A program made the position numbers and the translations under genes. A stretch of DNA of 64,000 nt from Chitinophagales bacterium (GTDB taxonomy: Bacteria > Bacteroidota > Bacteroidia > Chitinophagales > Chitinophagaceae): the NCBI GenBank assembly GCA_038210625.1, contig JBBQWL010000041.1, positions 1,584-65,583 of the forward strand, in the 5' to 3' direction. The notes under the pieces were generated by a model that ran no database searches, was not told where the DNA came from, and saw nothing but the letters and a program-made list of their open reading frames with translations. Every line of letters starts with the position of its first letter. The stretch's first letter is position 1. Below are positions 1 through 53,651 of the stretch, one piece after another.

Positions 1-1673
1 CTAACGTTTGTGCGATGCTGATTTACAACATCTGCCGGGCTAAAACCAGGAAAGCCCTGCGCTCCCGGAGCTTGTCCGAATGCATTTGTGTATTGTTTGT
101 AGGAAGCTTCTTCCCCTTTATAAATGCTATACTTTTCATACCTGAATTCCGTTCCAAGTCCAATATTAAGTCCTTCTGCTATGGTAGAAAAAGACTTGCT
201 GAAATCGAGGTTGGTTGTGTTTTGCAGAAAGTTAAAGCCACCATCATCAAAATGTGTTTTAGATATATCACCAACTACAGACGCATTGAATGTTTTATCT
301 CCATAATAGTGAAAATCATTTCTGCCGATTGTATTGCTTAAGTCCCAGTTCCAATCTCCTGTTAGTTTACCTTTAAATCCCGCGGCCAAAGAAATATCAT
401 TTATTTTGGTTTGAATATGGGGATTGTAATATGTTTCACCGTCGGCTGATTTGCGCATAATTGCGGCGTCGAATATCAGGTTGCCGCCGGCATCTACCGG
501 AAAGCGATCAGGTCTTGCGCTGTAGTTTCTGGAGTAAGCAAATGCATCAGATGCTTTGTAATTATAGCCGCCAAACGAATAGAAAGTCGTCTTATCGTTG
601 TTGCCCACAGGAATTTCCATATTGTACATGGCACCAGCGGTTTTGACCGAGCCATCGCCAAACGCACGTCGGCCGCTGTTGAGCGGCAACGCATTAGGGT
701 TTTTAGCCAAATCGGTATCACCGACTTGTCTGTATGTTTTAGCAGCAGATAACAGGTCCAGGGAAAAATTTACAAAGCCTCCTTTTTTACCAATAGCAAG
801 GCCATTGTTTACAGACAGCGAAACGGTACCACCATCGATGGGTTTGCTGTAATAATAATCGTTGGTGGCCCTTGTGCTATAGGCGTTGTATTTCGTATCA
901 TTATACCCACTCCACCCAGTATTAATGGTCCAGTGATTGATGTCTTTTTTTAATACAATATTCATTACGCCTGCCATAGCATCGGAGCCGTATTGCGCAG
1001 AAGCACCATCCCTCAAAATTTCAATTCTATCAACGGCTGATTGTGGAAACGCATTTAAGTCAACACCTGAATTGCCTCTTCCTCTTGTACCAAACAATGC
1101 TACAAATGCAGTCTGGTGACGGCGTTTGCCATTTATTAACACAAGGGTCTGATCTGGTCCTAACCCGCGCAGCGTACCCAAATCAACATGATCAGCACCA
1201 TCTGCACCACTTTGCTTATTGTAGTTAAATGAAGGGGCTGCCATATTCAAAATAGAGGTTAAATCCATTTTTGCCGTAGGTAAACCCACTTGGTTTATTT
1301 TAATTACATCCACCGGTACGGCGGTTTCCGTTTTTGCCCGGCCTGCGCCACGTGTACCCAACACTACAATATCCCCAAGTTCAACCGGGGTAGCTACCAA
1401 TGCAACTGTAATTTCTGTTTGAGTGCCAAGCGTAATAGATTGTAGTTTGTAACCAACGCTGCTCACTTCCAAAACATCGTTTACGCTGGCCTGTATTTTT
1501 AAGGTGCCATCATTACCTGATGTAATACCTTTTTTAGAAGATTTTATTTTAACGGATGCATTGGATAATGGATTTCCATTGGCTGCATCCGTAACCTTCA
1601 CTGTAAATATTTGCTGTGCAAACAGCACATAAGAACAAAAAAGGAAACTTAATGATAAGATCAGTTTTTTCAT
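1..1673 (-). CDS. TonB-dependent receptor, N-terminal part (runs off the left edge; missing from the ORF track)
   Basis: Manual translation from ATG at 1673: signal peptide MKKLILSLSFLFCSYVLFA, CarboxypepD_reg-like domain, then plug motifs VVVGTRG..TETAVPVDVI, LRGLGPDQTLVLINGKRRH and DRIEILRDGASAQYGSDAMAGVMNIVLK; open frame to the window edge. Confidence 0.9.
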   Translation of the reverse strand, partial: MKKLILSLSFLFCSYVLFAQQIFTVKVTDAANGNPLSNASVKIKSSKKGITSGNDGTLKIQASVNDVLEVSSVGYKLQSITLGTQTEITVALVATPVELGDIVVLGTRGAGRAKTETAVPVDVIKINQVGLPTAKMDLTSILNMAAPSFNYNKQSGADGADHVDLGTLRGLGPDQTLVLINGKRRHQTAFVALFGTRGRGNSGVDLNAFPQSAVDRIEILRDGASAQYGSDAMAGVMNIVLKKDINHWTINTGWSGYNDTKYNAYSTRATNDYYYSKPIDGGTVSLSVNNGLAIGKKGGFVNFSLDLLSAAKTYRQVGDTDLAKNPNALPLNSGRRAFGDGSVKTAGAMYNMEIPVGNNDKTTFYSFGGYNYKASDAFAYSRNYSARPDRFPVDAGGNLIFDAAIMRKSADGETYYNPHIQTKINDISLAAGFKGKLTGDWNWDLSNTIGRNDFHYYGDKTFNASVVGDISKTHFDDGGFNFLQNTTNLDFSKSFSTIAEGLNIGLGTEFRYEKYSIYKGEEASYKQYTNAFGQAPGAQGFPGFSPADVVNQHRTNV

Positions 1674-1937
1674 TATTAGTTGTTTTGGTTAATTCAAAGT
1701 TCCGTATAATATGATAAAAGATGAAATTATATTTCACCGGGCGGTAAAAAGATAACTTTATGTTTGCAGGCATAAAAATCTAAATATTATTTTTATTTTA
1801 CTTCTAATCTTCTCAAATAAATATGGAACAATAAAATACTTGTAATACCGGAGTAATTTCAAAAATAGCCCTGTTTTAATAAGGATATTTTTGAAGACTT
1901 AATTTTGAATATTAAAATAAGAAAAAGCAAATAATGT

Positions 1938-2471
1938 ATGGAAATAATTAACAGCACGGTAAGCGATATTGCAACCATATTTGAATTCTACGATCACGCC
2001 ATTGCGTATCAAAAAACTAAATTTAATAAACACTGGCAGGGGTTTGATTTACCGGTTATTGAAAAGGAGATAAAAGAAAACAGGCAATTCAAAATTGTAC
2101 AGGATGAAAAAGTGGTTTGCATATTTGCCATCACGTTTAATGATCCTGCCATTTGGGGCGAAAAGGATAAAGACAAAGCCATCTATATTCATAGAATTGT
2201 AACTCATCCCGCGTTTCATGGCAATAATTACGTAAAGCATATTGTGAAATGGGTGATTGATTACTGCGAAAAAAACGGGATTGATTATGTGAGAATGGAT
2301 ACCTGGGGCGATAACCAGAAACTGATTGACCACTACCAGGGTTGTGGTTTTACTTTTATGGGTATATCAGCCGAAATGAAGGATGTAACCCTGCCCAAAC
2401 ATTACGATTGTATTTCCCTAAGTTTATTTGAAATAGACATCAAAAAACAGCAGCATCATGGCAATGTATGA
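1938..2471 (+). CDS. GNAT family N-acetyltransferase
   Basis: YIHRIVTHPAFHGNN (motif A-like) and VRMDTWGDNQKLIDHYQGCGF (motif B-like). Confidence 0.8.
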   Translation: MEIINSTVSDIATIFEFYDHAIAYQKTKFNKHWQGFDLPVIEKEIKENRQFKIVQDEKVVCIFAITFNDPAIWGEKDKDKAIYIHRIVTHPAFHGNNYVKHIVKWVIDYCEKNGIDYVRMDTWGDNQKLIDHYQGCGFTFMGISAEMKDVTLPKHYDCISLSLFEIDIKKQQHHGNV

Positions 2472-3234
2472 TAATGAGAATACGGTTGTAAAGTCTTTCG
2501 ATCTTACTTATGTTTCTGAGCATTTGCAGCAGGCACAATGGGCCGAATTTATTGAACTTAAGAAAGTAGTAACAGTATTGTACAAACGGCAGGGCAGGCC
2601 GGTTTCAATATTAGATATTGGAATTGGCAATGCACGTATTCCTAAACATTTAAGCGGGGTAAAAGAAATTTGGGATATGGTTGCCACGTACGATGGAACA
2701 GATAATGCGCAAGCCTGTGTAGACATTGCATCAAAAAATATTGCTGATTTAAATATTGCCGATAAGGTACACGCTTATTTTTTTGATGGAGCCAAACTGG
2801 ATGAATGGACAAAGAAATATGATTTGGTAATTACCACCTGGTTTACCGCAGGCAATTTTTATCCAGACGATTTTTCTTTTGAAACATACCAGTCTACTGG
2901 CAAAAGACTGGATCTTTCTACGAATGAGAAATTTACAACAATCTTTAAAAACGCATACGGGCTTTTAAATGAAGGCGGAGCATTGTTGATAGGCGCCTGT
3001 TATATTGATAATGCAAGCACCCGTTTAAAACAGGAAGAGTCCTACGCAAAGATGGGAATGACCGTTATTACCAGCGCAGCAGATAGTTTTACCGCCACCA
3101 GGGAGGGTTTCTGGAGCCAGCGTTTCACCAAAGAAAAACTGAAGCAATATCTTTATTTTGTATCGCCAGAAAAAATACAGTTCACTCCGTTGGATACGTA
3201 TGATTATGCCATGCAGGTCTCCATCAGTAAATAA
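2458..3234 (+). CDS. Class I SAM-dependent methyltransferase
   Basis: Motif I SILDIGIGNARI, acidic residue after beta-2 (YDGTD), YDLVITTW; overlaps the GNAT stop. Confidence 0.75.
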   Translation: MAMYDNENTVVKSFDLTYVSEHLQQAQWAEFIELKKVVTVLYKRQGRPVSILDIGIGNARIPKHLSGVKEIWDMVATYDGTDNAQACVDIASKNIADLNIADKVHAYFFDGAKLDEWTKKYDLVITTWFTAGNFYPDDFSFETYQSTGKRLDLSTNEKFTTIFKNAYGLLNEGGALLIGACYIDNASTRLKQEESYAKMGMTVITSAADSFTATREGFWSQRFTKEKLKQYLYFVSPEKIQFTPLDTYDYAMQVSISK

Positions 3235-10196: not shown

Positions 10197-10317
10197 CTTT
10201 CAAAGGTCTATAAAGTTTTTTAATTGGGAGGTGTAGTTTTTAATTAATAAATTGCCAAAAAACGGAGCGTTCCTGATTTTTGGGGTAGTTGAATCGTCGT
10301 TCAGCAGAACTGAAAAA

Positions 10318-10350
10318 GTACAAGAGTGCGACGCCAATGAGGCTAAATAG
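10318..10350 (+). repeat. Dispersed repeat core GTACAAGAGTGCGACGCCAATGA (copy 1)
   Basis: Near-identical to 20221-20244, 21642-21665 (minus) and 29555-29578. Confidence 0.85.
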
Positions 10351-10402
10351 TAGTACAACTGTTTGGCAAAAAATAAATTATAAAATCATAAAAAAATTAA
10401 AC

Positions 10403-10831
10403 ATGGCACAAGTTAAAGAAGGGGATGTTGTAAAAGTACATTACACTGGTAAGTTAGTAAACGGAGAACAATTTGATTCTTCTGTGGGTAGGGAACCATT
10501 GGAATTTACCGTGGGCGCCGGGCAAATGATTAAAGGCTTTGACGCGGCTATGCCGGGTATGAATGTGGGTGAAAAGAAAACCATCAACATTGCGCCGCAG
10601 GATGGGTATGGCGAAAAAAGTGAAGAGGCAATTATAGAGTTTCCAAAGGAACATGTACCTGCTGATATGAAGCTGGAAGCGGGTATGCCATTAACGCTAA
10701 GCAACCAGGAAGGGCAGCCTGTACCGGTAATTGTGGTAGAAGTAAAAGACGATGTAATTATTTTAGATGCGAATCATTTTTTAGCCGGCCAGGAGTTGGT
10801 GTTTGATATTGAATTGGTAGAGATAGTGTAG
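10403..10831 (+). CDS. FKBP-type peptidyl-prolyl cis-trans isomerase (SlyD-like, no His-rich tail)
   Basis: VKVHYTGKL..GEQFDSS, GAGQMIKGFD, DANHFLAGQELVFDIELVEI; start set at MAQV. Confidence 0.9.
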   Translation: MAQVKEGDVVKVHYTGKLVNGEQFDSSVGREPLEFTVGAGQMIKGFDAAMPGMNVGEKKTINIAPQDGYGEKSEEAIIEFPKEHVPADMKLEAGMPLTLSNQEGQPVPVIVVEVKDDVIILDANHFLAGQELVFDIELVEIV

Positions 10832-10833
10832 GA

Positions 10834-10861
10834 GACAATAAGCAATAGTAAATAGGCAATA
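10834..10861 (+). repeat. Left heptamer arm (GACAATA AGCAATA GTAAATA GGCAATA) of the four-helix-bundle cassette
   Basis: Four 7-nt units ending AATA, abutting the ATG at 10862; inverted partner at 11221-11248. Confidence 0.9.
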
Positions 10862-11218
10862 ATGCTCAATCTGAATCATAAAAAGCTTAAGGCCTGGCAA
10901 CTTGCTATTCAGCTGTATAAAGAAGTATTATTGCTTGTAAGGAAATTACCTAAAGAAGAAATTTTCAATTTAACCTCACAAATAAAAAGAGCGGCGCTTT
11001 CTGTAAGTAATAATATTGCGGAAGGTGCAGCAAGAAAATCGTCTGCAGAAAGAAAAAGATTTTATGAAGTAGCACGTTCTTCAGACGTAGAAGTAGATAA
11101 TTGTTTTGAAGTAATTCTTACTGTTGAATATTTAAGCAAAGAGGATATACTAATAGCAGAAAACCTTGTGGAACAAATTTTCAAACTACTGTCAGCAATG
11201 ATTGATAACACGAAATGA
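10862..11218 (+). CDS. Four helix bundle protein (23S rRNA intervening-sequence protein / bAvd-like family)
   Basis: LKAWQLAIQLYKEV...LPKEEIFNLTSQIKRAALSVSNNIAEGAARKS..ERKRFYEVARSS..EV signature. Confidence 0.92.
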   Translation: MLNLNHKKLKAWQLAIQLYKEVLLLVRKLPKEEIFNLTSQIKRAALSVSNNIAEGAARKSSAERKRFYEVARSSDVEVDNCFEVILTVEYLSKEDILIAENLVEQIFKLLSAMIDNTK

Positions 11219-11220
11219 AT

Positions 11221-11248
11221 TATTGCTTATTTACTATTCCCTATTGCC
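11221..11248 (-). repeat. Right heptamer arm (TATTGCT TATTTAC TATTCCC TATTGCC)
   Basis: Matches the reverse complement of 10834-10861 at 24/28 positions; starts 2 nt after the TGA stop. Confidence 0.9.
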
Positions 11249-11261
11249 TTGATTTTACATT

Positions 11262-12530
11262 ATGATACAAATTAGTCCCGATAACGTGGCTGAGCGCTTT
11301 ATGCGTTATGTTCGGATAGATACGCAAAGTGACCCGACAAGTACGGCGCATCCAAGTTCTGAAAAGCAAAAAGACTTGAGTAAAGTATTGCAACGGGAAT
11401 TGTTGGGCATGGGTATCACCAATGCCATTACGGATGAATTTGGATATGTGTATGCAACATTGCCGGGCAACAGTGACAAGAAAAATATTCCTGCCATTTG
11501 TTTTTGCGCCCATGTAGATACGGCGCCGGATTGCAGTGGTACCAATGTAAAGCCCATACATCACCGGTATTATGATGGAGCGGATATTGTGTTGCCGGAT
11601 GATGCGAGCCAGGTGCTTTCGATGGCCACCTCCCCTTATTTAAAACAACATTTAAACCATGGAATTATTACGGCCAGCGGTTTAACGTTACTGGGAGCGG
11701 ATGATAAAAGTGGCGTGGCTGCCATTATGGAGGCGGCACTTTTTTTTATGCAAAACCCGGTGGTTAAACATGGCGATATAAAGATTTTATTTACCCCGGA
11801 TGAAGAAGTTGGCCAGGGTACTGCCAAAGTAGATATGCAACAACTGGGTGCACAGTTTGGGTACACCATGGATGGCGGAGAAGCGGGCAGCCTGGAAGAT
11901 GAAACCTTTAGCGCCGATGCGGCGACCATTGTTATACATGGTGTAATAGTACACCCCGGCTATGCAAAAGATAAACTGGTGAACGCATTAAAAATTGCCG
12001 GTGCTGTACTAGATGCGTTGCCGAAAAATGAGTGGAGCCCGGAGACGACTTCAGGCAAGGAAGGTTTTGTACATCCGGTGGCAGTGAATGGTATTGCTGA
12101 AAAAGCAACGCTTCAATTTATTGTAAGAGACTTTACTGTGGCTGGTTTACAACAACATCATGAGCGGTTGAAGCAGATAGCAGAGGAGGTGGTTGCCAGC
12201 TTTGCGGGTGCAACTGTTGAATACAGAGTTACAGAACAATATCGCAATATGAAGGAAGTGCTGGACCAGCATCCCGAAGTAGTTGCCTATGCCGAAGAAG
12301 CGATACAGCGTGCTGGTTTAACAGTAAAAAAAGAAAGCATTCGCGGGGGTACTGATGGTAGCCGTTTTAGTTATATCGGCATGCCCTGCGCAAATATATT
12401 TACCGGCATGCAAAACATTCATAGCAAGCTGGAATGGATTGGTACCAAAGACATGGCCAAGGCTGCGGAAACGATTGTGCATTTGAGTATGATTTGGGAA
12501 GAGAAGGGGGTGATACCGTTAAATTCGTAG
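11262..12530 (+). CDS. pepT: Peptidase T (tripeptide aminopeptidase, M20B)
   Basis: ERFMRYVRIDTQSD, AHVDTAPD, TLLGADDKSG, FTPDEEVG, IRGGTDGS, NIHSKLEW. Confidence 0.93.
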   Translation: MIQISPDNVAERFMRYVRIDTQSDPTSTAHPSSEKQKDLSKVLQRELLGMGITNAITDEFGYVYATLPGNSDKKNIPAICFCAHVDTAPDCSGTNVKPIHHRYYDGADIVLPDDASQVLSMATSPYLKQHLNHGIITASGLTLLGADDKSGVAAIMEAALFFMQNPVVKHGDIKILFTPDEEVGQGTAKVDMQQLGAQFGYTMDGGEAGSLEDETFSADAATIVIHGVIVHPGYAKDKLVNALKIAGAVLDALPKNEWSPETTSGKEGFVHPVAVNGIAEKATLQFIVRDFTVAGLQQHHERLKQIAEEVVASFAGATVEYRVTEQYRNMKEVLDQHPEVVAYAEEAIQRAGLTVKKESIRGGTDGSRFSYIGMPCANIFTGMQNIHSKLEWIGTKDMAKAAETIVHLSMIWEEKGVIPLNS

Positions 12531-13729: not shown

Positions 13730-14410
13730 ATGTTTGATATTCTTTTACAGGTAGATACTACTAAAGTGGCCACAGAGCTGTTGTCACAAAAGTCAGAAAA
13801 TGTTTGGGGCGTACTGGCCAAAGGAGGCTTGCTGATGATCCCTTTATTGGCGTTGTTAGTAGTAGCTATTTTCTTTTTTATTGAAAGGTTACTTACTATT
13901 ACCAAAGCGGCTAAAATCGAAGATAATTTTATGAGCATTATCCGGGATAATATTGTTTCCGGTAATGTAACCGCCGCCAGGAACCTTGCCAAAAATACCA
14001 ATAACCCGGTTGCCAGGGTAATTGATAAAGGCATGCAACGCATTGGTAAACCTATTGATGCCATCGAAAAAAGTATGGATAATGTAGGGGTACTGGAAAT
14101 GTATAAACTGGAGAAAAATTTATCCATCATTTCTATCATCGCACGCATTGCGCCGTTGTTTGGATTTTTAGGAACCATCATTGGTATGCTGGCGCTTTTC
14201 AAAGGCATTGCAGCCACATCGGAGTATACGCCCAACACTATTGCAGATGGTATTTATATCAAAATGATTACTTCTGCTACCGGTTTAATTATTGGTATCC
14301 TGGCTTATCTTGGTCATAGTTTTTTACAGGCGCAAATTGCGAGGATAGAAAATAAAATTGATGCGGCAAGCGCTGAGTTTGTAGATATTTTGCAGGAACC
14401 AACAAGATAG
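13730..14410 (+). CDS. exbB: MotA/TolQ/ExbB proton channel family protein
   Basis: IAPLFGFLGTIIGM, ADGIYIKMITSATGLIIGI; paired with ExbD; TACTTTTG box at 13705-13712. Confidence 0.9.
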   Translation: MFDILLQVDTTKVATELLSQKSENVWGVLAKGGLLMIPLLALLVVAIFFFIERLLTITKAAKIEDNFMSIIRDNIVSGNVTAARNLAKNTNNPVARVIDKGMQRIGKPIDAIEKSMDNVGVLEMYKLEKNLSIISIIARIAPLFGFLGTIIGMLALFKGIAATSEYTPNTIADGIYIKMITSATGLIIGILAYLGHSFLQAQIARIENKIDAASAEFVDILQEPTR

Positions 14411-14413
14411 AGA

Positions 14414-14520
14414 TGTCAATGGTGAATAGGCAATGGTGAAAACTTTGAAGGTCACTATTCAATATTTACCACGACAATTTGCTACAGACAATTCACAATT
14501 GACCATTCACAATTCACCAT
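14414..14520. repeat. Inverted heptamer arms without a cargo gene, between exbB and exbD
   Basis: Left TGTCAAT GGTGAAT AGGCAAT GGTGAAA (14414-14441); right ATTCACA ATTGACC ATTCACA ATTCACC (14491-14518); ~49-nt spacer. Confidence 0.8.
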
Positions 14521-14526
14521 ATAAGT

Positions 14527-20354: not shown

Positions 20355-21539
20355 CTACTTAAACGCATTCAACCCCGTAACATCCATCCCCGTAATCAAC
20401 AAATGAATATCGTGCGTGCCTTCATAGGTAATCACACTTTCCAAATTCATCATGTGACGCATCACCGGGTATTCGCCTGTAATGCCCATTCCGCCCAGCA
20501 TCTGGCGGGCGTCTCTTGCAATATTGGTAGCCACTTCGCAGGCATTTCTTTTAGCCATACTCACTTGTTGAGGAGTAACTTTTCCTTCATTCATCAATAC
20601 TCCTAAACGCCAGTTTAATAATTGCGCTTTGGTAATTTCTGTCACCATTTCGGCCAGTTTTTTTTGCTGCAATTGAAACCCACCGATCGGCCTGCCAAAC
20701 TGAATTCTTTCTTTACTATATTCCAATGCAATATAATAGCAATCCATGGCGGCGCCAATGGCACCCCAGGCAATACCATAGCGGGCTTTGGTTAAGCAAC
20801 CCAGCGGACCTTTCAATCCTTTTACATTGGGCAAAATATTTTCTTTCGGCACTTTTACATTGTCAAACACCAACTCGCCGGTAGCACTCGCACGCAAACT
20901 CCATTTGCCATGCGTGGTAGGCGTACTAAACCCTTCCATACCTCTTTCAACAATTACGCCCTGAATTTCATCTTTTTCATTTCGTGCCCACACCACCGCT
21001 ACCTGCGCAAAAGGCGCATTGCTGATCCACATTTTAGCACCATTTAAAATAACATGATGACCTGCATCTTTAATATTGGTGAGCATACTGCTGGGGTCGC
21101 TGCCATGATTAGGTTCTGTTAATCCAAAACAACCCAGCCACTCGCCGCTGGCCAATTTGGGTAAATATTTATGGCGCTGTTCTTCGCTGCCATATTGATA
21201 AATCGGGAACATCACCAAACTGCCTTGCACACTGGCAGTCGACCTTACGCCGCTATCGCCTCTCTCCAATTCCTGCATCATTAAACCATAACTAATATAA
21301 TCCAGGCCGCCGCCGCCGTATTGTTCCGGCACTGTCGGACCAAAGCAACCCATGTCTCCCAACTGTTTTACAATTTGTTGCGGAAACTCGGCACGTTGTG
21401 CGTAGTCTTCTATAATCGGGCTGATTTCTTTTTTTACATAGTTGCGTACACTTTCCCTTACCAACTTATGTTCTTCGGTCAATAATTCGTCAACGTTAAA
21501 ATAGTCCGGACTTTGAAAATTGTCTGTTTTAGCTGCCAT
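20355..21539 (-). CDS. gcdH: Acyl-CoA dehydrogenase, glutaryl-CoA dehydrogenase-like
   Basis: GCFGLTEPNHGSDP, GAKMWISNAP, SLRASATGEL, QFGRPIGGFQL, TYEGTHDIH. Confidence 0.85.
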   Translation of the reverse strand: MAAKTDNFQSPDYFNVDELLTEEHKLVRESVRNYVKKEISPIIEDYAQRAEFPQQIVKQLGDMGCFGPTVPEQYGGGGLDYISYGLMMQELERGDSGVRSTASVQGSLVMFPIYQYGSEEQRHKYLPKLASGEWLGCFGLTEPNHGSDPSSMLTNIKDAGHHVILNGAKMWISNAPFAQVAVVWARNEKDEIQGVIVERGMEGFSTPTTHGKWSLRASATGELVFDNVKVPKENILPNVKGLKGPLGCLTKARYGIAWGAIGAAMDCYYIALEYSKERIQFGRPIGGFQLQQKKLAEMVTEITKAQLLNWRLGVLMNEGKVTPQQVSMAKRNACEVATNIARDARQMLGGMGITGEYPVMRHMMNLESVITYEGTHDIHLLITGMDVTGLNAFK

Positions 21540-21698: not shown

Positions 21699-21998
21699 GG
21701 ATGGAACGCTGATGACACGGATGCAACGGATTTGGACTGATTTTAAATCCGTTTTTAATCCGCCTTATCAGCGTTAACCGTGTGCTATCCTTCCCACCAC
21801 CTGATGGGAACACGGATGACACGGATGTAACGGATTTGCACTGATTTTAAATCCGTTTTTAATCCGTCTTATCAGCGTTATCCGTGTGCTATCCTTCCCA
21901 CCACCTGTTGGGAACACGGATGACACGGATGTAACGGATTTGCACTGATTTTAAATCCGTTTTTAATCCGCAAAATCAGCGTCATCCGTGTTCCATCC
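21699..21998. repeat. Tandem array, 104-bp period, ~2.9 copies, each unit an imperfect hairpin with 9-mer-periodic arms
   Basis: GGAAC unit starts at 21703, 21807, 21911; outer ends GGATGGAAC / GTTCCATCC inverted. Confidence 0.92.
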
Positions 21999-22004
21999 CT
22001 CGCA

Positions 22005-22012
22005 CAAAGATA
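22005..22012 (-). promoter_or_regulatory. Bacteroidota -7 box (TATCTTTG), candidate gcdH promoter
   Basis: Consensus TAnnTTTG match oriented toward gcdH, upstream of the tandem array. Confidence 0.55.
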
Positions 22013-22104: not shown

Positions 22105-22656
22105 TTGGAACTGACGGTATCAATACATCGGGATGAACTGGTAGAACGCTGTAGAAAAGGCGAAGCGGCAGGCTATAAAAAACTGTACCAGCGCTACGCC
22201 AAAGCCATGTTCAACACCTGCCATAGAATTTTAAACAGCATTGACGAGGCAGAAGATGTGCTGCAGGAAAGTTTTACCGAAGCATTTAAAAATCTGCATG
22301 CCTTTGAATACCGCACCAGTTTTGGCGGCTGGCTAAAGCAAATCTGCGTTCACCGCAGTATTAACCAGCTAAAGAAAAGAAAGTTTAAATGGGAAGATAT
22401 TGAAGCAATCAATGTGTACAATATAGCAGACGAAACTTTTGTTGATGAAAACGAAATTACATTAAAGGTGGACCAGGTAAAAAACTCAATTATGGCGTTG
22501 CCGGACGGATACCGCACCGTATTGAGTTTGTATTTACTGGAAGGCTATGATCACCAGGAAATAGCGGAAATATTAAACGTAGCGGAATCAACCACCCGAA
22601 CGCAGTATATGCGGGCGAAACAAAAATTATTACAGGTTTTAAAAGAAGGAATATGA
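22105..22656 (+). CDS. ECF RNA polymerase sigma-70 factor
   Basis: EAEDVLQESFTEAF, SFGGWLKQICVHRSI, LPDGYRTVLSLYLLEGYDHQEIAEIL; TTG start. Confidence 0.92.
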   Translation: MELTVSIHRDELVERCRKGEAAGYKKLYQRYAKAMFNTCHRILNSIDEAEDVLQESFTEAFKNLHAFEYRTSFGGWLKQICVHRSINQLKKRKFKWEDIEAINVYNIADETFVDENEITLKVDQVKNSIMALPDGYRTVLSLYLLEGYDHQEIAEILNVAESTTRTQYMRAKQKLLQVLKEGI

Positions 22657-51825: not shown

Positions 51826-52476
51826 TTAAAATTGCATTTTTTGTCCAAATGCCAGGTCTCCTGCATCGCCAAGCCCGGGTACAATATAGCCTTTACCAGT
51901 TATTTCGTCATCAATATCGCCGCACCAGATCGTTGCTTTTGGCTGCTCCCTTAAAACAAATTCAATACCGACGGTGCATGCAATGGCACAAACAATATGA
52001 ATTTCCTTAATAACGCCTTCTTGTTTCAGGTATTGTATTGCTTTTACTAAAGAAGCCCCGGTGGCAATCATCGGGTCGCTGATGATTAGTACTTTGTCGT
52101 CCAGCTCAGGGCAACTGATATACTCAATGCTTATTTCAAAACCGCCATCAGGATTATGTTTGCGGTAGGCACTTATAAAAGCGTTTTCCCCTTTGTCAAA
52201 ATAATTCAACAACCCGTTGTGCATTCCAAGACCTGCCCTTAAAATGGTAGCCAATACCGGTTGGGATTGCAGCACTTTGCAAGTGGCGATACCCAGTGGC
52301 GTTGTAATTTCCTTTTCTTCCCAGGCCAGCGTTTTGCTTATCTCGTAAGCAGCCACTTCGCCAATTCGTTCCAGGTTTTTACGAAAACGCATCCTGTCAT
52401 TTTGCGTTTCCACATCTCTTAATTCACTCACCCAATTACTTACCAGCGAGTGTTGTTGGCTTAGATTAACTACCAT
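51826..52476 (-). CDS. upp: Uracil phosphoribosyltransferase
   Basis: RFRKNLERIG, ILRAGL, DPMIATG, YIVPGLGDAGD. Confidence 0.95.
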   Translation of the reverse strand: MVVNLSQQHSLVSNWVSELRDVETQNDRMRFRKNLERIGEVAAYEISKTLAWEEKEITTPLGIATCKVLQSQPVLATILRAGLGMHNGLLNYFDKGENAFISAYRKHNPDGGFEISIEYISCPELDDKVLIISDPMIATGASLVKAIQYLKQEGVIKEIHIVCAIACTVGIEFVLREQPKATIWCGDIDDEITGKGYIVPGLGDAGDLAFGQKMQF

Positions 52477-52565
52477 GAATATTATTTTGAAACTTTGAAT
52501 TTGAAATTTGAAATTGCACCCTCAACCCACGTTGTAAAAGTAGGAATTAAAATTTTCAAAAAATT

Positions 52566-53651
52566 ATGATTTACAGGGCAATTGGTATAATGAGTGGCAG
52601 CTCGCTGGATGGGTTGGATATTGTATTTACCGAACTGACAGAAACCGGGGGCAAATGGAATTACCAGATTTTAGCAGCTGATTGCTTACCGTATACAAAT
52701 GAATGGATCAAAAGATTATCCAGCGCCACCGGCCTTTCTGCGGTGGATTACCAGTTGCTTCATACGGCCTACGGTCATTACATCGGCCAGGCAATTAACC
52801 AGTTTATTGATAAGAATAATTTGCATCACAGAGTAAACCTGGCAGCGTCTCACGGGCACACTACGTTTCATCTGCCGGACCAAAAAATGACGGCCCAAAT
52901 AGGGGATGGAGCGGCTATTGCCGCGGTGACCCAGTTGCCGGTAGTAAGTGATTTGCGAAGTATGGATGTTGCGTTTGGCGGTCAGGGAGCGCCTATTGTA
53001 CCCATTGGCGAAAAATTATTACTTGGGGAATATGGATACTTTTTAAACATTGGTGGTATCGCCAATATTTCAATCAACACAAATAGTAAGTACACAGCTT
53101 TTGACATCTGTGCAGCCAACCGCGTTTTAAATATGCTGGCAGAAAAAAAGGGATTATTGTATGATGATGGTGGAAAAATAGCTGCATCTGGTAAATTAAA
53201 TGAACAGTTATTGCAGCAGTTAAATCAGTTGGATTATTACAGGCAACCAGCGCCCAAGTCGCTGGGCAATAGTTTTGGTACAGACACGGTGTATAAAATG
53301 ATTGAAAATGCTACACTTACTGTTGAAGATGCATTAAGAACGTATACAGAGCATATTGCCTTGCAGGTTAAAGCGGCTATCTGCAAAGAAGAAGAAAGCA
53401 CAGATAACAAAATGCTGATTACAGGTGGCGGGGCATTCAATACTTTTTTGAAACAGAGAATAAGTGATTTATTAAAAGAAAAAGCGATAACCGTTATTGT
53501 GCCAGATGAGCAACTTGTGAAATACAAGGAGGCATTGATTATGGCGTTAATAGGCGTATTAAGATGGAGGGAGGAAATCAATGTGTTGGCCTCCGTAACC
53601 GGCGCTTCGCAAAACAGTATTGGCGGTGCATTATGGCTGGGTAAGGCTTAG
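52566..53651 (+). CDS. anmK: Anhydro-N-acetylmuramic acid kinase
   Basis: GIMSGSSLDGLD, SHGHTTFH, QIGDG, DLRSMDVAFGGQGAPIVP, NIGGIAN, GGGAFN, KEAL. Confidence 0.93.
   Translation: MIYRAIGIMSGSSLDGLDIVFTELTETGGKWNYQILAADCLPYTNEWIKRLSSATGLSAVDYQLLHTAYGHYIGQAINQFIDKNNLHHRVNLAASHGHTTFHLPDQKMTAQIGDGAAIAAVTQLPVVSDLRSMDVAFGGQGAPIVPIGEKLLLGEYGYFLNIGGIANISINTNSKYTAFDICAANRVLNMLAEKKGLLYDDGGKIAASGKLNEQLLQQLNQLDYYRQPAPKSLGNSFGTDTVYKMIENATLTVEDALRTYTEHIALQVKAAICKEEESTDNKMLITGGGAFNTFLKQRISDLLKEKAITVIVPDEQLVKYKEALIMALIGVLRWREEINVLASVTGASQNSIGGALWLGKA

Follow-up and report, generated by a model that had tools for sequence, protein, structure and literature searches.

What does a complete gene represent when it stands between two co-directional host genes and is framed on both sides by inverted arrays of heptamers? 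This arrangement occurs in contig JBBQWL010000041.1 of assembly GCA_038210625.1 (Chitinophagales bacterium), of which a stretch of 64,000 nt with 40% G+C, here called the window, was analysed; it derives from a Ferruginibacter-like member of the Chitinophagaceae. A gene for a four-helix-bundle (4HB) protein, enclosed by two arms of four heptamers each, lies between the genes of an FKBP-type peptidyl-prolyl isomerase and a peptidase T-like M20 peptidase (pepT). The protein belongs to PF05635 (23S_rRNA_IVP)/TIGR02436, a very large family that is represented by two crystal structures and takes its name from the rare context of rRNA intervening sequences (IVSs). The best explanation of the locus, which we regard as moderately probable, is that it holds a copy of a widespread heptamer-armed PF05635 cassette, an element of the Coxiella IVS type, residing in an operon junction with arms that pair on the transcript.

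The arms of the window cassette are not a product of chance. The coordinates, the arm sequences and the filling of the gap as given in the initial annotation all agree with the sequence: the left arm follows the TAG stop codon of the FKBP gene (10829-10831) after 2 nt, the right arm follows the TGA of the 4HB gene (11216-11218) after the two bases AT, and arms and gene together (415 nt) take up the FKBP-pepT gap (Table 1). Recomputation reproduced the arm match that had been reported, with 24 of 28 positions complementary and one more as G-U, the four mismatches being one G-T (G·U in RNA), two A-C and one C-C. An independent repeat search returned an inverted pair at 10833-10863 and 11219-11249 (31 nt, 87% complementary), and the 4HB arms were the only paired period-7 arrays in an automatic scan of the window, 20 shuffles of which gave a mean of 0.0 pairs. 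In the predicted minimum free energy (MFE) fold of 10820-11262 (443 nt, z = -2.9), the two arms form the basal stem. Neither a terminator nor a promoter consensus was found between FKBP and pepT. The neighbours at the junction are DUF1501, NamZ, FKBP, M20 peptidase, Band_7 and ExbB.

Inverted heptamer arms proved to accompany the family as a whole. Homologues were drawn from near-relative contigs, 80 metagenome loci, 29 viral contigs, Xanthomonadales isolates and cyanobacterial plasmids, and enrichment was measured on 66 non-redundant full-length 4HB genes from the near-relative contigs and the 80 metagenome loci, with a period-7 signal defined as at least 13/21 within 110 nt of the gene and arm complementarity as at least 20/28. 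A period-7 signal was detected upstream of 71% of these genes, downstream of 71% and on both sides of 55%. Half of the 66 homologues (50%) had signals on both sides together with complementary arms, versus 0.4% (n=270) and 3.9% (n=77, neighbours sharing an arm) of control genes from comparable DNA in the same two-sided test, so that the enrichment of arms around homologues, proposed as a check in the initial annotation, is strongly positive. No enrichment was seen around the 4HB homologues for periods 5, 6, 8 and 9. Being specific to both period and family, the enrichment indicates that the pattern is not due to chance. Stem lengths are mostly 23-30 bp, corresponding to about four units.

The units vary by cassette (GTGAAAA, GGTGAAT, GTGAGTA, GGGAATC, GGTATTA, TCAGGAG and others) around a loose consensus in register, namely any base, G (87%), T (66%), G/C (86%), A (93%), A/G (88%) and T (74%). 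The window units aGGCAAT, aAGCAAT and aGTAAAT conform to this N-G-T-G/C-A-A/G-T pattern, and the left-arm unit types of the window recur in seven relatives (loci L003, L006, L087, L167, L170, L172 and L173). Placement is snug. In most cassettes the right arm starts 0-7 nt past the stop codon; a co-directional open reading frame (ORF) starts about -12 to +16 nt from the detected arm end in 35 of 58 cassettes, and in about 20 of 55 the left arm is preceded, at no more than about 10 nt, by the end of a co-directional ORF, arm ends in these counts being fuzzy by a few bases. The junctions observed (FKBP-pepT, accB-accC, fixC-fixX, the position before dapF, and cmr3-cmr2) lie between co-directional genes, several of them classic operon partners, and the frame was found in Bacteroidota, Xanthomonadales, cyanobacterial plasmids and phage contigs.

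The genes accB and accC encode two subunits of one enzyme. In Dyella and Rhodanobacter they are separated by the cassette, in the order aroQ, accB, 4x7 arm, 4HB gene, 4x7 arm and accC, with the ATG of accC directly after the fourth right-hand unit. The GTG start of the 4HB gene lies within the third left-arm unit, which means that the arm encodes the N-terminus visible in the XCC0516 crystal (ENRES...). The accB-accC junction is also the site of a metagenomic XCC0516 relative (E 1e-44 to 2GSC). The Xanthomonadales cassettes at this junction span 1480-1915 in L175, 1480-1915 in L178 (Rhodanobacter) and 440-895 in L163. In Xanthomonas campestris, the start of XCC0516 is overlapped by repeat #15, GGGAATCGGGAGTGGAGAATCGGGAATC, which lies at a distance of 6 nt from bccP (Rehm et al. 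S2 Table A, PMC4692102). On plasmid pNPUN01 of Nostoc punctiforme, the left side consists of eight TCAGGAG/TCAGAAT units reaching the ATG, and CTCCTGA CTTCTGA ATTCTAA follow the stop codon, the ATG of the next gene lying two bases beyond these right-hand units. The units of a Geminocystis plasmid cassette are AAAAGGG and TTTTCCC, and cassette-bearing plasmids include conjugative ones. Arms are visible by eye in most of the 29 phage contigs, nine of which pass the strict two-sided test. A dapF-like gene, recognised by reading its start (...FHKYQGTGNDF), is located directly downstream of the 4HB gene in the metagenome loci L088, L094, L097, L098 and L102, which makes this position another junction with repeated landings.

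Arms and gene move together as a single unit. In L003 a copy with an 86% identical protein sits between a LOG-family gene and a methyltransferase gene whose ATG overlaps the last arm unit; the stretch similar to the window extends from the first heptamer to the last, with unrelated sequence on either side. Both arms are also kept in all cassette-bearing FKBP-pepT relatives whose contig covers the downstream flank. Across four aligned cassettes the stretch AT TATTGCT TATTTAC TATT is invariant although synonymous sites are saturated, and the arm units are thus conserved well beyond neutral expectation. The suggestion of the initial annotation that the locus is an IVS-like cassette with the arms as part of it is borne out by these comparisons.

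A second expectation of that annotation, clean presence or absence of arms plus gene among relatives, was not borne out, and the junction holds many gene-less heptamer modules instead. No 4HB gene was found near pepT in any of the 80 representatives of related species, whose pepT is 65-90% identical. The cassette is present at FKBP-pepT in L006, L167, L170 and L173 (pepT 83-87% identical); L172 and L087 also carry it after FKBP, on contigs that stop short of pepT. A neighbour-joining tree of pepT, a single-gene tree with no support values, places five carriers at scattered positions among non-carriers. In the closest relatives lacking the gene (L007, L008) the gap has another sequence, so neither an insertion point nor a target duplication can be read there, and no target-site duplication is visible at three insertion sites. 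The identity of the 4HB proteins at this junction (83-89%) parallels that of pepT (83-87%), and FKBP divergence is parallel too. Long vertical residence, combined with repeated loss or replacement, explains this no less readily than a series of insertions. The cassettes have housekeeping genes as neighbours, and no transposase, integrase or reverse transcriptase adjoins them.

Table 1. Features of the FKBP-pepT and exbB-exbD junctions of the window and of the phage contigs with nested cassettes
Sequence	Feature	Positions	Strand	Remarks
Window	FKBP-type peptidyl-prolyl isomerase, upstream host gene	10403..10831	+	PF00254, E 1.2e-25
Window	Left arm, 4 heptamers GACAATA AGCAATA GTAAATA GGCAATA	10834..10861	+	directly abuts 4HB ATG (10862)
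Window	4HB gene, 118 aa, PF05635 23S_rRNA_IVP / TIGR02436	10862..11218	+	profile matches
Window	Internal segment GTATTATTGCTTG	10925..10937	+	pairs in MFE fold with last left-arm unit and start codon
Window	Right arm, 4 heptamers TATTGCT TATTTAC TATTCCC TATTGCC	11221..11248	+	ends 13 nt before pepT ATG
Window	Peptidase T-like M20 peptidase (pepT), downstream host gene	11262..12530	+	co-directional; ATG at 11262
Window	Gene-less heptamer pair between exbB and exbD	14414..14523	+	snug between stop and start
L180	Methylase ORF	103-1617		at least 504 aa
L180	Nested 4HB ORF	656-1021		
L181	Methylase ORF	6-2480		824 aa
L181	Nested 4HB ORF	1453-1854		ATG at 1489
L182	Methylase ORF	60-2474		804 aa
L182	Nested 4HB ORF	1489-1845		

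The protein itself is a clear member of its family. The window ORF scored 100.3 bits against PF05635 (cut-off 33.8) and 92.4 bits against TIGR02436 (cut-off 24). Its AlphaFold2 model (pLDDT 96.9) shows a short N-terminal turn (residues 5-8) and then four long helices, and it superposes on XCC0516 (PDB 2GSC) with a template-modelling (TM) score of 0.95 and on BT_0352 (2RLD) with 0.82. Against Avd of diversity-generating retroelements (DGRs; 4DWL, 8UB7), the TM score was 0.76-0.77 at 6% sequence identity, and there was a weak profile match to PHROG 'Avd protein of DGR' (E 0.006). The assignment to the 23S rRNA IVS family with an Avd-like fold, as made in the initial annotation, is therefore supported by both profiles and model. 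R43, S47, N51, E54 and G55 are invariant in a 28-sequence alignment that includes the window protein, which thereby carries the conserved R..S..N..E motif of the family, published as GxxRxxxSxxxNxxE (PMC3936711). Pairs of 4HB genes with computable synonymous divergence (dS) gave ratios of nonsynonymous to synonymous divergence (dN/dS) of 0.04-0.13 (0.12 for the Dyella-Rhodanobacter pair), with dS above 1 or saturated, indicating strong purifying selection. One search returned at least 5462 Xanthomonadales-type relatives at E<=1e-20 among 8000 candidates scored. PF05635 genes have been reported within cas loci and counted as CRISPR-associated, for example between cmr3 and cmr2 in Pleurocapsa (PMC3936711); the window 4HB protein had no match among the defence-system profiles of PADLOC.

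Among known systems, the closest parallel is the ORF-bearing IVS in the 23S rRNA of Coxiella, to which that of Leptospira is similar. The Coxiella IVS (helix 45) shares with the window a PF05635-family ORF, four heptamers before the ATG and a pair of arms of about 28 bp. In Coxiella burnetii, three GACAGAT units and one GACAGAA directly precede the ATG of S23p, and the 28-bp terminal stem is cut mid-stem by RNase III (PMC4990558). The window cassette thus has the terminal inverted repeats of about 28 bp and the tandem heptamers before the ORF, but it is not an insertion in helix 25 or 45 of 23S rRNA: it lies between FKBP and M20 peptidase genes, and no Rfam family reached its gathering score in the window, the only match near the cassette being a chance one to a snoRNA (E 0.8). 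RNase III cleavage has been demonstrated for Coxiella and is a prediction for the window cassette; and whereas the S23p ORF is reported to be decaying, the window 4HB gene is under purifying selection. ORF-bearing rRNA IVSs appear to be one landing site of a cassette that is much wider in occurrence and probably mobile.

The arms also resemble intergenic heptamer pairs described without reference to this family. Xanthomonas carries 70-75 convergent GGGAATC pairs, mostly of four units, for example at groES-groEL (Rehm et al. 2015, PMC4692102). TAACTGA heptamer repeats have been reported (PMC4679880), as have paired sets of 4-5 heptanucleotide sites in Geobacter (PMC2700814), and repeat pairs of this kind are on record for Xanthomonas, Geobacter, Beggiatoa, cyanobacteria and some Bacteroidetes. 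The published pairs have in common with the window a period of 7, a strong preference for four units, convergent orientation and a position between co-directional ORFs, no more than tens of bases from stop and start, and the window arms show these characteristics of the Xanthomonas GGGAATC type. The three papers treat heptamers as G-quadruplex or regulator sites and do not link them to the 4HB gene, neither S23 nor a four-helix protein being found in their text. The window units cannot form G-quadruplexes, which therefore cannot explain the preference for four units.

Other mobile or variable systems were compared as well. The window protein is a four-helix bundle like Avd, yet XCC0516 and BT_0352 are much closer to it, and the reverse transcriptase expected of a DGR was absent near the cassette in precomputed domain calls on its neighbours. 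Repetitive extragenic palindromes (REP) and bacterial interspersed mosaic elements (BIME), REP doublets forming hairpins (REPIN) with their REP-associated tyrosine transposases (RAYT), and miniature transposable elements with inverted repeats (MITEs) are likewise short intergenic inverted repeats between co-directional genes, and a split into gene-bearing and gene-less copies is a possible further parallel. Unlike these, the window arms are tandem heptamers, not one palindrome. Within the 64 kb of the window, which holds one cassette and one degenerate gene-less pair, neither a RAYT or transposase nor a near-identical multi-copy family was seen, and no target duplication was visible. An integron cassette has a single attC downstream of a promoterless ORF, whereas the window ORF has repeats on both sides, and no integron integrase was found in the cassette neighbourhood.

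The protein family, its fold, its relationship to Avd, the Coxiella IVS heptamers and intergenic heptamer pairs were already known. No literature linking 4HB genes to heptamer arms outside Coxiella, or describing these genes as operon-junction cassettes, was found in a survey of mostly open full-text literature, which leaves most subscription journals uncovered and a prior description possible. The cassette class is widespread and apparently undescribed.

How might such a cassette persist in an operon junction? Apparently with neither promoter nor terminator of its own, the window cassette would be expressed by read-through from FKBP. On the read-through transcript the arms could pair (about -24 kcal/mol) and loop out the gene, which would bring the FKBP stop next to the pepT start and keep the insertion harmless. 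By analogy with rRNA IVSs, the duplex of roughly 28 bp would be a substrate of RNase III. We read the arms as the cassette's own functional ends, for which pairing on the transcript would be the most economical role in operon junctions. The conservation of unit sequence calls in addition for a sequence-specific reader of the units, and the encoded 4HB protein would be the obvious candidate. This RNA-stem model draws its support from the Coxiella parallel, the dependence on host transcription, the tight geometry of stop, arm and start, and the duplex energies, which lie between -24 and -33 kcal/mol for each of the seven close relatives. For a marine fixC-4HB-fixX relative, metatranscriptome contigs span both arms and show only read-through, indicating that this cassette is transcribed with both neighbours, although such contigs cannot reveal processing and DNA carry-over is possible. 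L163 is barely represented in RNA runs (5% of sampled words).

An alternative pairing was noted within the window cassette. The last left-arm unit together with the start codon, GGCAATAATGC (10855-10866), can pair with the segment GTATTATTGCTTG of the ORF, and the helix so formed might occlude the start and compete with the arm-arm stem; the internal segment is conserved only in part among relatives.

Several observations weigh against this explanation. Transition-type arm mismatches on the sense strand are 32 G·U versus 33 A·C; the excess of G·U that normally betrays selection for an RNA helix is thus absent, and a G·U bias as a sign of RNA-level selection was rejected. Arm-specific co-variation in the close family was rejected as well: cognate arms pair no better than non-cognate ones (-29.0 versus -28.9 kcal/mol), and a single clean compensatory change was seen (ATAAATA with TATTTAT in L167). 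Unit order is unmirrored between arms, for example in L006, L172 and L173. About 30% of homologues have no detectable arms, and the gene-less modules at FKBP-pepT mean that such arms are not exclusive to the 4HB gene. The stability of the cassette at accB-accC across Xanthomonadales is as compatible with domestication of the gene as with mobility, and no DNA excision joint was present in contigs of four metagenomes covering the locus.

Phage contigs add a further difficulty. In L180, L181 and L182/L183, an ORF for an Eco57I/PglX-like methylase reads through the whole cassette on the same strand, in another frame and without a stop, so that the 4HB gene lies inside an in-frame insertion of about 120-130 aa and the left arm is translated (SEQWVVISGQCY). 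The chance of an open frame over 357 nt is about 0.003 by rough estimate, and the frame is open in three diverged copies. Removal from RNA is therefore not required in these copies, which argues against excision from mRNA being obligatory. In L182, a second PF05635 gene (2502-2891) directly follows the methylase stop codon; judged from the translation, its C-terminus, SAIKNQKSAIKNQKS, looks encoded by AATCAAA-type heptamers, in which case the arm would overlap coding sequence.

Many of these points would be accommodated if the arms acted on DNA, as inverted arrays of short binding sites similar to the sub-terminal repeats of transposons, read by the 4HB protein or a host factor in the service of movement, recombination or maintenance and pairing in RNA merely as a by-product. 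Such arrays would fit units that are kept where synonymous sites are saturated and follow a consensus common to several phyla, arms that lack a G·U bias, pair alike whether cognate or not and do not mirror each other's unit order, and a cassette that tolerates being translated through and is present in phage contigs and conjugative plasmids. We nevertheless consider a DNA-level role unlikely, if the least so of the alternatives. No transposase, integrase or reverse transcriptase stands next to the cassettes, neither a target-site duplication nor a DNA excision joint is visible, and the 118-aa bundle has no known catalytic domain. A spacing of 7 bp, moreover, puts successive sites on different faces of the duplex, which better suits single-strand readers.

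Heptamer arms are also found without a gene. The FKBP-pepT gaps of relatives contain inverted heptamer pairs with a different unit in each lineage (GTTTGAG, GGATAAT, TTCAAAA, TAAGTTA, GGTGAAT, GGGAATC, AGCAATA), usually framing a terminator-like hairpin (GCAGTTTGC...GCAAACTGCTTTTT). A strict automatic test was passed by 17 of 56 junctions; three more pairs were misfiled by boundary, and further ones are apparent by eye. Gene-less modules in the gaps of L007-L086 (for example L009, L012, L015, L016, L019, L020, L054, L055 and L071) point to turnover at one site, and elsewhere in the relatives' loci gene-less pairs occur at roughly one per 50 kb. The window has its own example between exbB and exbD: the exbB stop codon (14408-14410) is followed after 3 nt by GTCAATG GTGAATA GGCAATG GTGAAAA, a 47-nt loop, CAATTCA CAATTGA CCATTCA CAATTCA CCATATA, and after another 3 nt by the exbD ATG (14527). 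Its pairing is weak (about 21/28 by eye, fold z = -1.4), and its units reach the 99.6th percentile when scored with the 4HB-arm profile. The loop contains TATTCAA TATTTAC, the unit type of the right arm of the 4HB cassette.

Such modules could mean that heptamer arms are generic stabilisers or insulators of mRNA, comparable to REP or to extensions of terminators, with the 4HB gene a mere passenger in the loop. The gene-less modules with lineage-specific units at FKBP-pepT, the exbB-exbD pair, and the Xanthomonas pairs (PMC4692102) and Geobacter site sets (PMC2700814) are what this explanation would predict, but it leaves unaccounted for the arms that accompanied the gene to an unrelated junction in L003 and their occurrence at 50-70% of 4HB genes versus less than 4% of other genes. 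It is also at odds with the arm sequences themselves: only 4 of 28 gene-less arms exceed the random 95th percentile of the 4HB-arm profile. We therefore rate a purely generic module as rather improbable. The opposite extreme, in which every gene-less heptamer arm would be the remnant of a 4HB cassette, was rejected on the same small number of good matches. Heptamer-periodic inverted arms are, by these sequence comparisons, a wider phenomenon in which the 4HB arms form a recognisable subclass.

The 4HB protein might instead be a domesticated regulator that binds the arrays on transcript or DNA and tunes the flanking genes, with patchiness reflecting loss. Strong purifying selection on the protein, the aroQ-accB-4HB-accC order kept across Xanthomonadales, the position of each arm directly before a start codon, and the parallel identities of 4HB protein and pepT, as under vertical descent, are compatible with this. 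We find it less likely still, given that the flanking operons (FKBP-pepT, accBC, fixCX, dapF, cas genes, methylase) are functionally unrelated and that copies occur in phage contigs and plasmids, with a near relative in a second junction. An artefact of chance or slippage in AT-rich intergenic DNA, which the 40% G+C of the window and the report that in many bacteria heptamers outnumber all other long simple repeats (Mrazek 2007, as cited in PMC4679880) might suggest, is refuted by the absence of pairs in shuffles, the specificity of the enrichment for period 7 and the 4HB family, and the conservation of the arms in relatives, and deserves practically no credence.

Some further repeats were recorded. 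Four TTTGAAA units at 52487-52515 were rejected as a module of this kind, having no inverted partner and lying between divergent genes (51826-52476 on the minus strand and 52566-53651 on the plus strand). After fixX in L093 (2212-2291), RNA-run contigs of a related strain differ and show TATAGTG TTAAGGC GTGATGG ... TAACACT TTAGCAC TATCACA, which looks like an inverted heptamer pair and makes this a strain polymorphism for another heptamer module. At 10311-10358 of the window, upstream of FKBP, a stretch of about 45 nt, ctgaaaaagtacaagagtgcgacgccaatgaggctaaatagtagtaca, has a very high metagenome depth (in X1, 907 versus about 11); in many contigs the core alone is common and the flanks differ, so it is a dispersed short element or a conserved leader. 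It has no Rfam match, and its plus strand folds with z = -2.3. A tandem repeat at 21703-22005 (104-bp unit, 2.9 copies, 91% identity, sub-repeats ACACGGATG and TTTTAAATCCG) occupies a gap flanked by two ORFs, one on the minus strand that ends at 21539 and one on the plus strand that starts at 22105.

Of wider interest is the family-wide heptamer frame around 4HB genes, with the window copy as an IVS-type cassette outside rRNA. A broader generalisation can be put forward only tentatively, and we doubt that it will hold as a whole: PF05635 proteins might be the protein half of pan-bacterial heptamer-armed hairpin elements, in which gene-bearing copies would be autonomous, some gene-less hairpins would be non-autonomous derivatives, the protein would read N-G-T-G-A-A-T-type arrays and the rRNA IVS would be one landing site. 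Candidates for such derivatives are the Xanthomonas GGGAATC pairs, the cyanobacterial heptamer repeats, the Geobacter sites and the exbB-exbD pair. If this is true, a very large 'unknown' family would acquire a function, and the long-noted excess of heptamers a cause. If the link between gene and arms holds, ORF-bearing rRNA IVSs would be a special case of a cassette with access to operon junctions and coding sequences as well as to plasmids and phage genomes, hitch-hiking may account for the associations reported between the PF05635 protein and CRISPR and defence loci, and the function of the protein would be directly testable.

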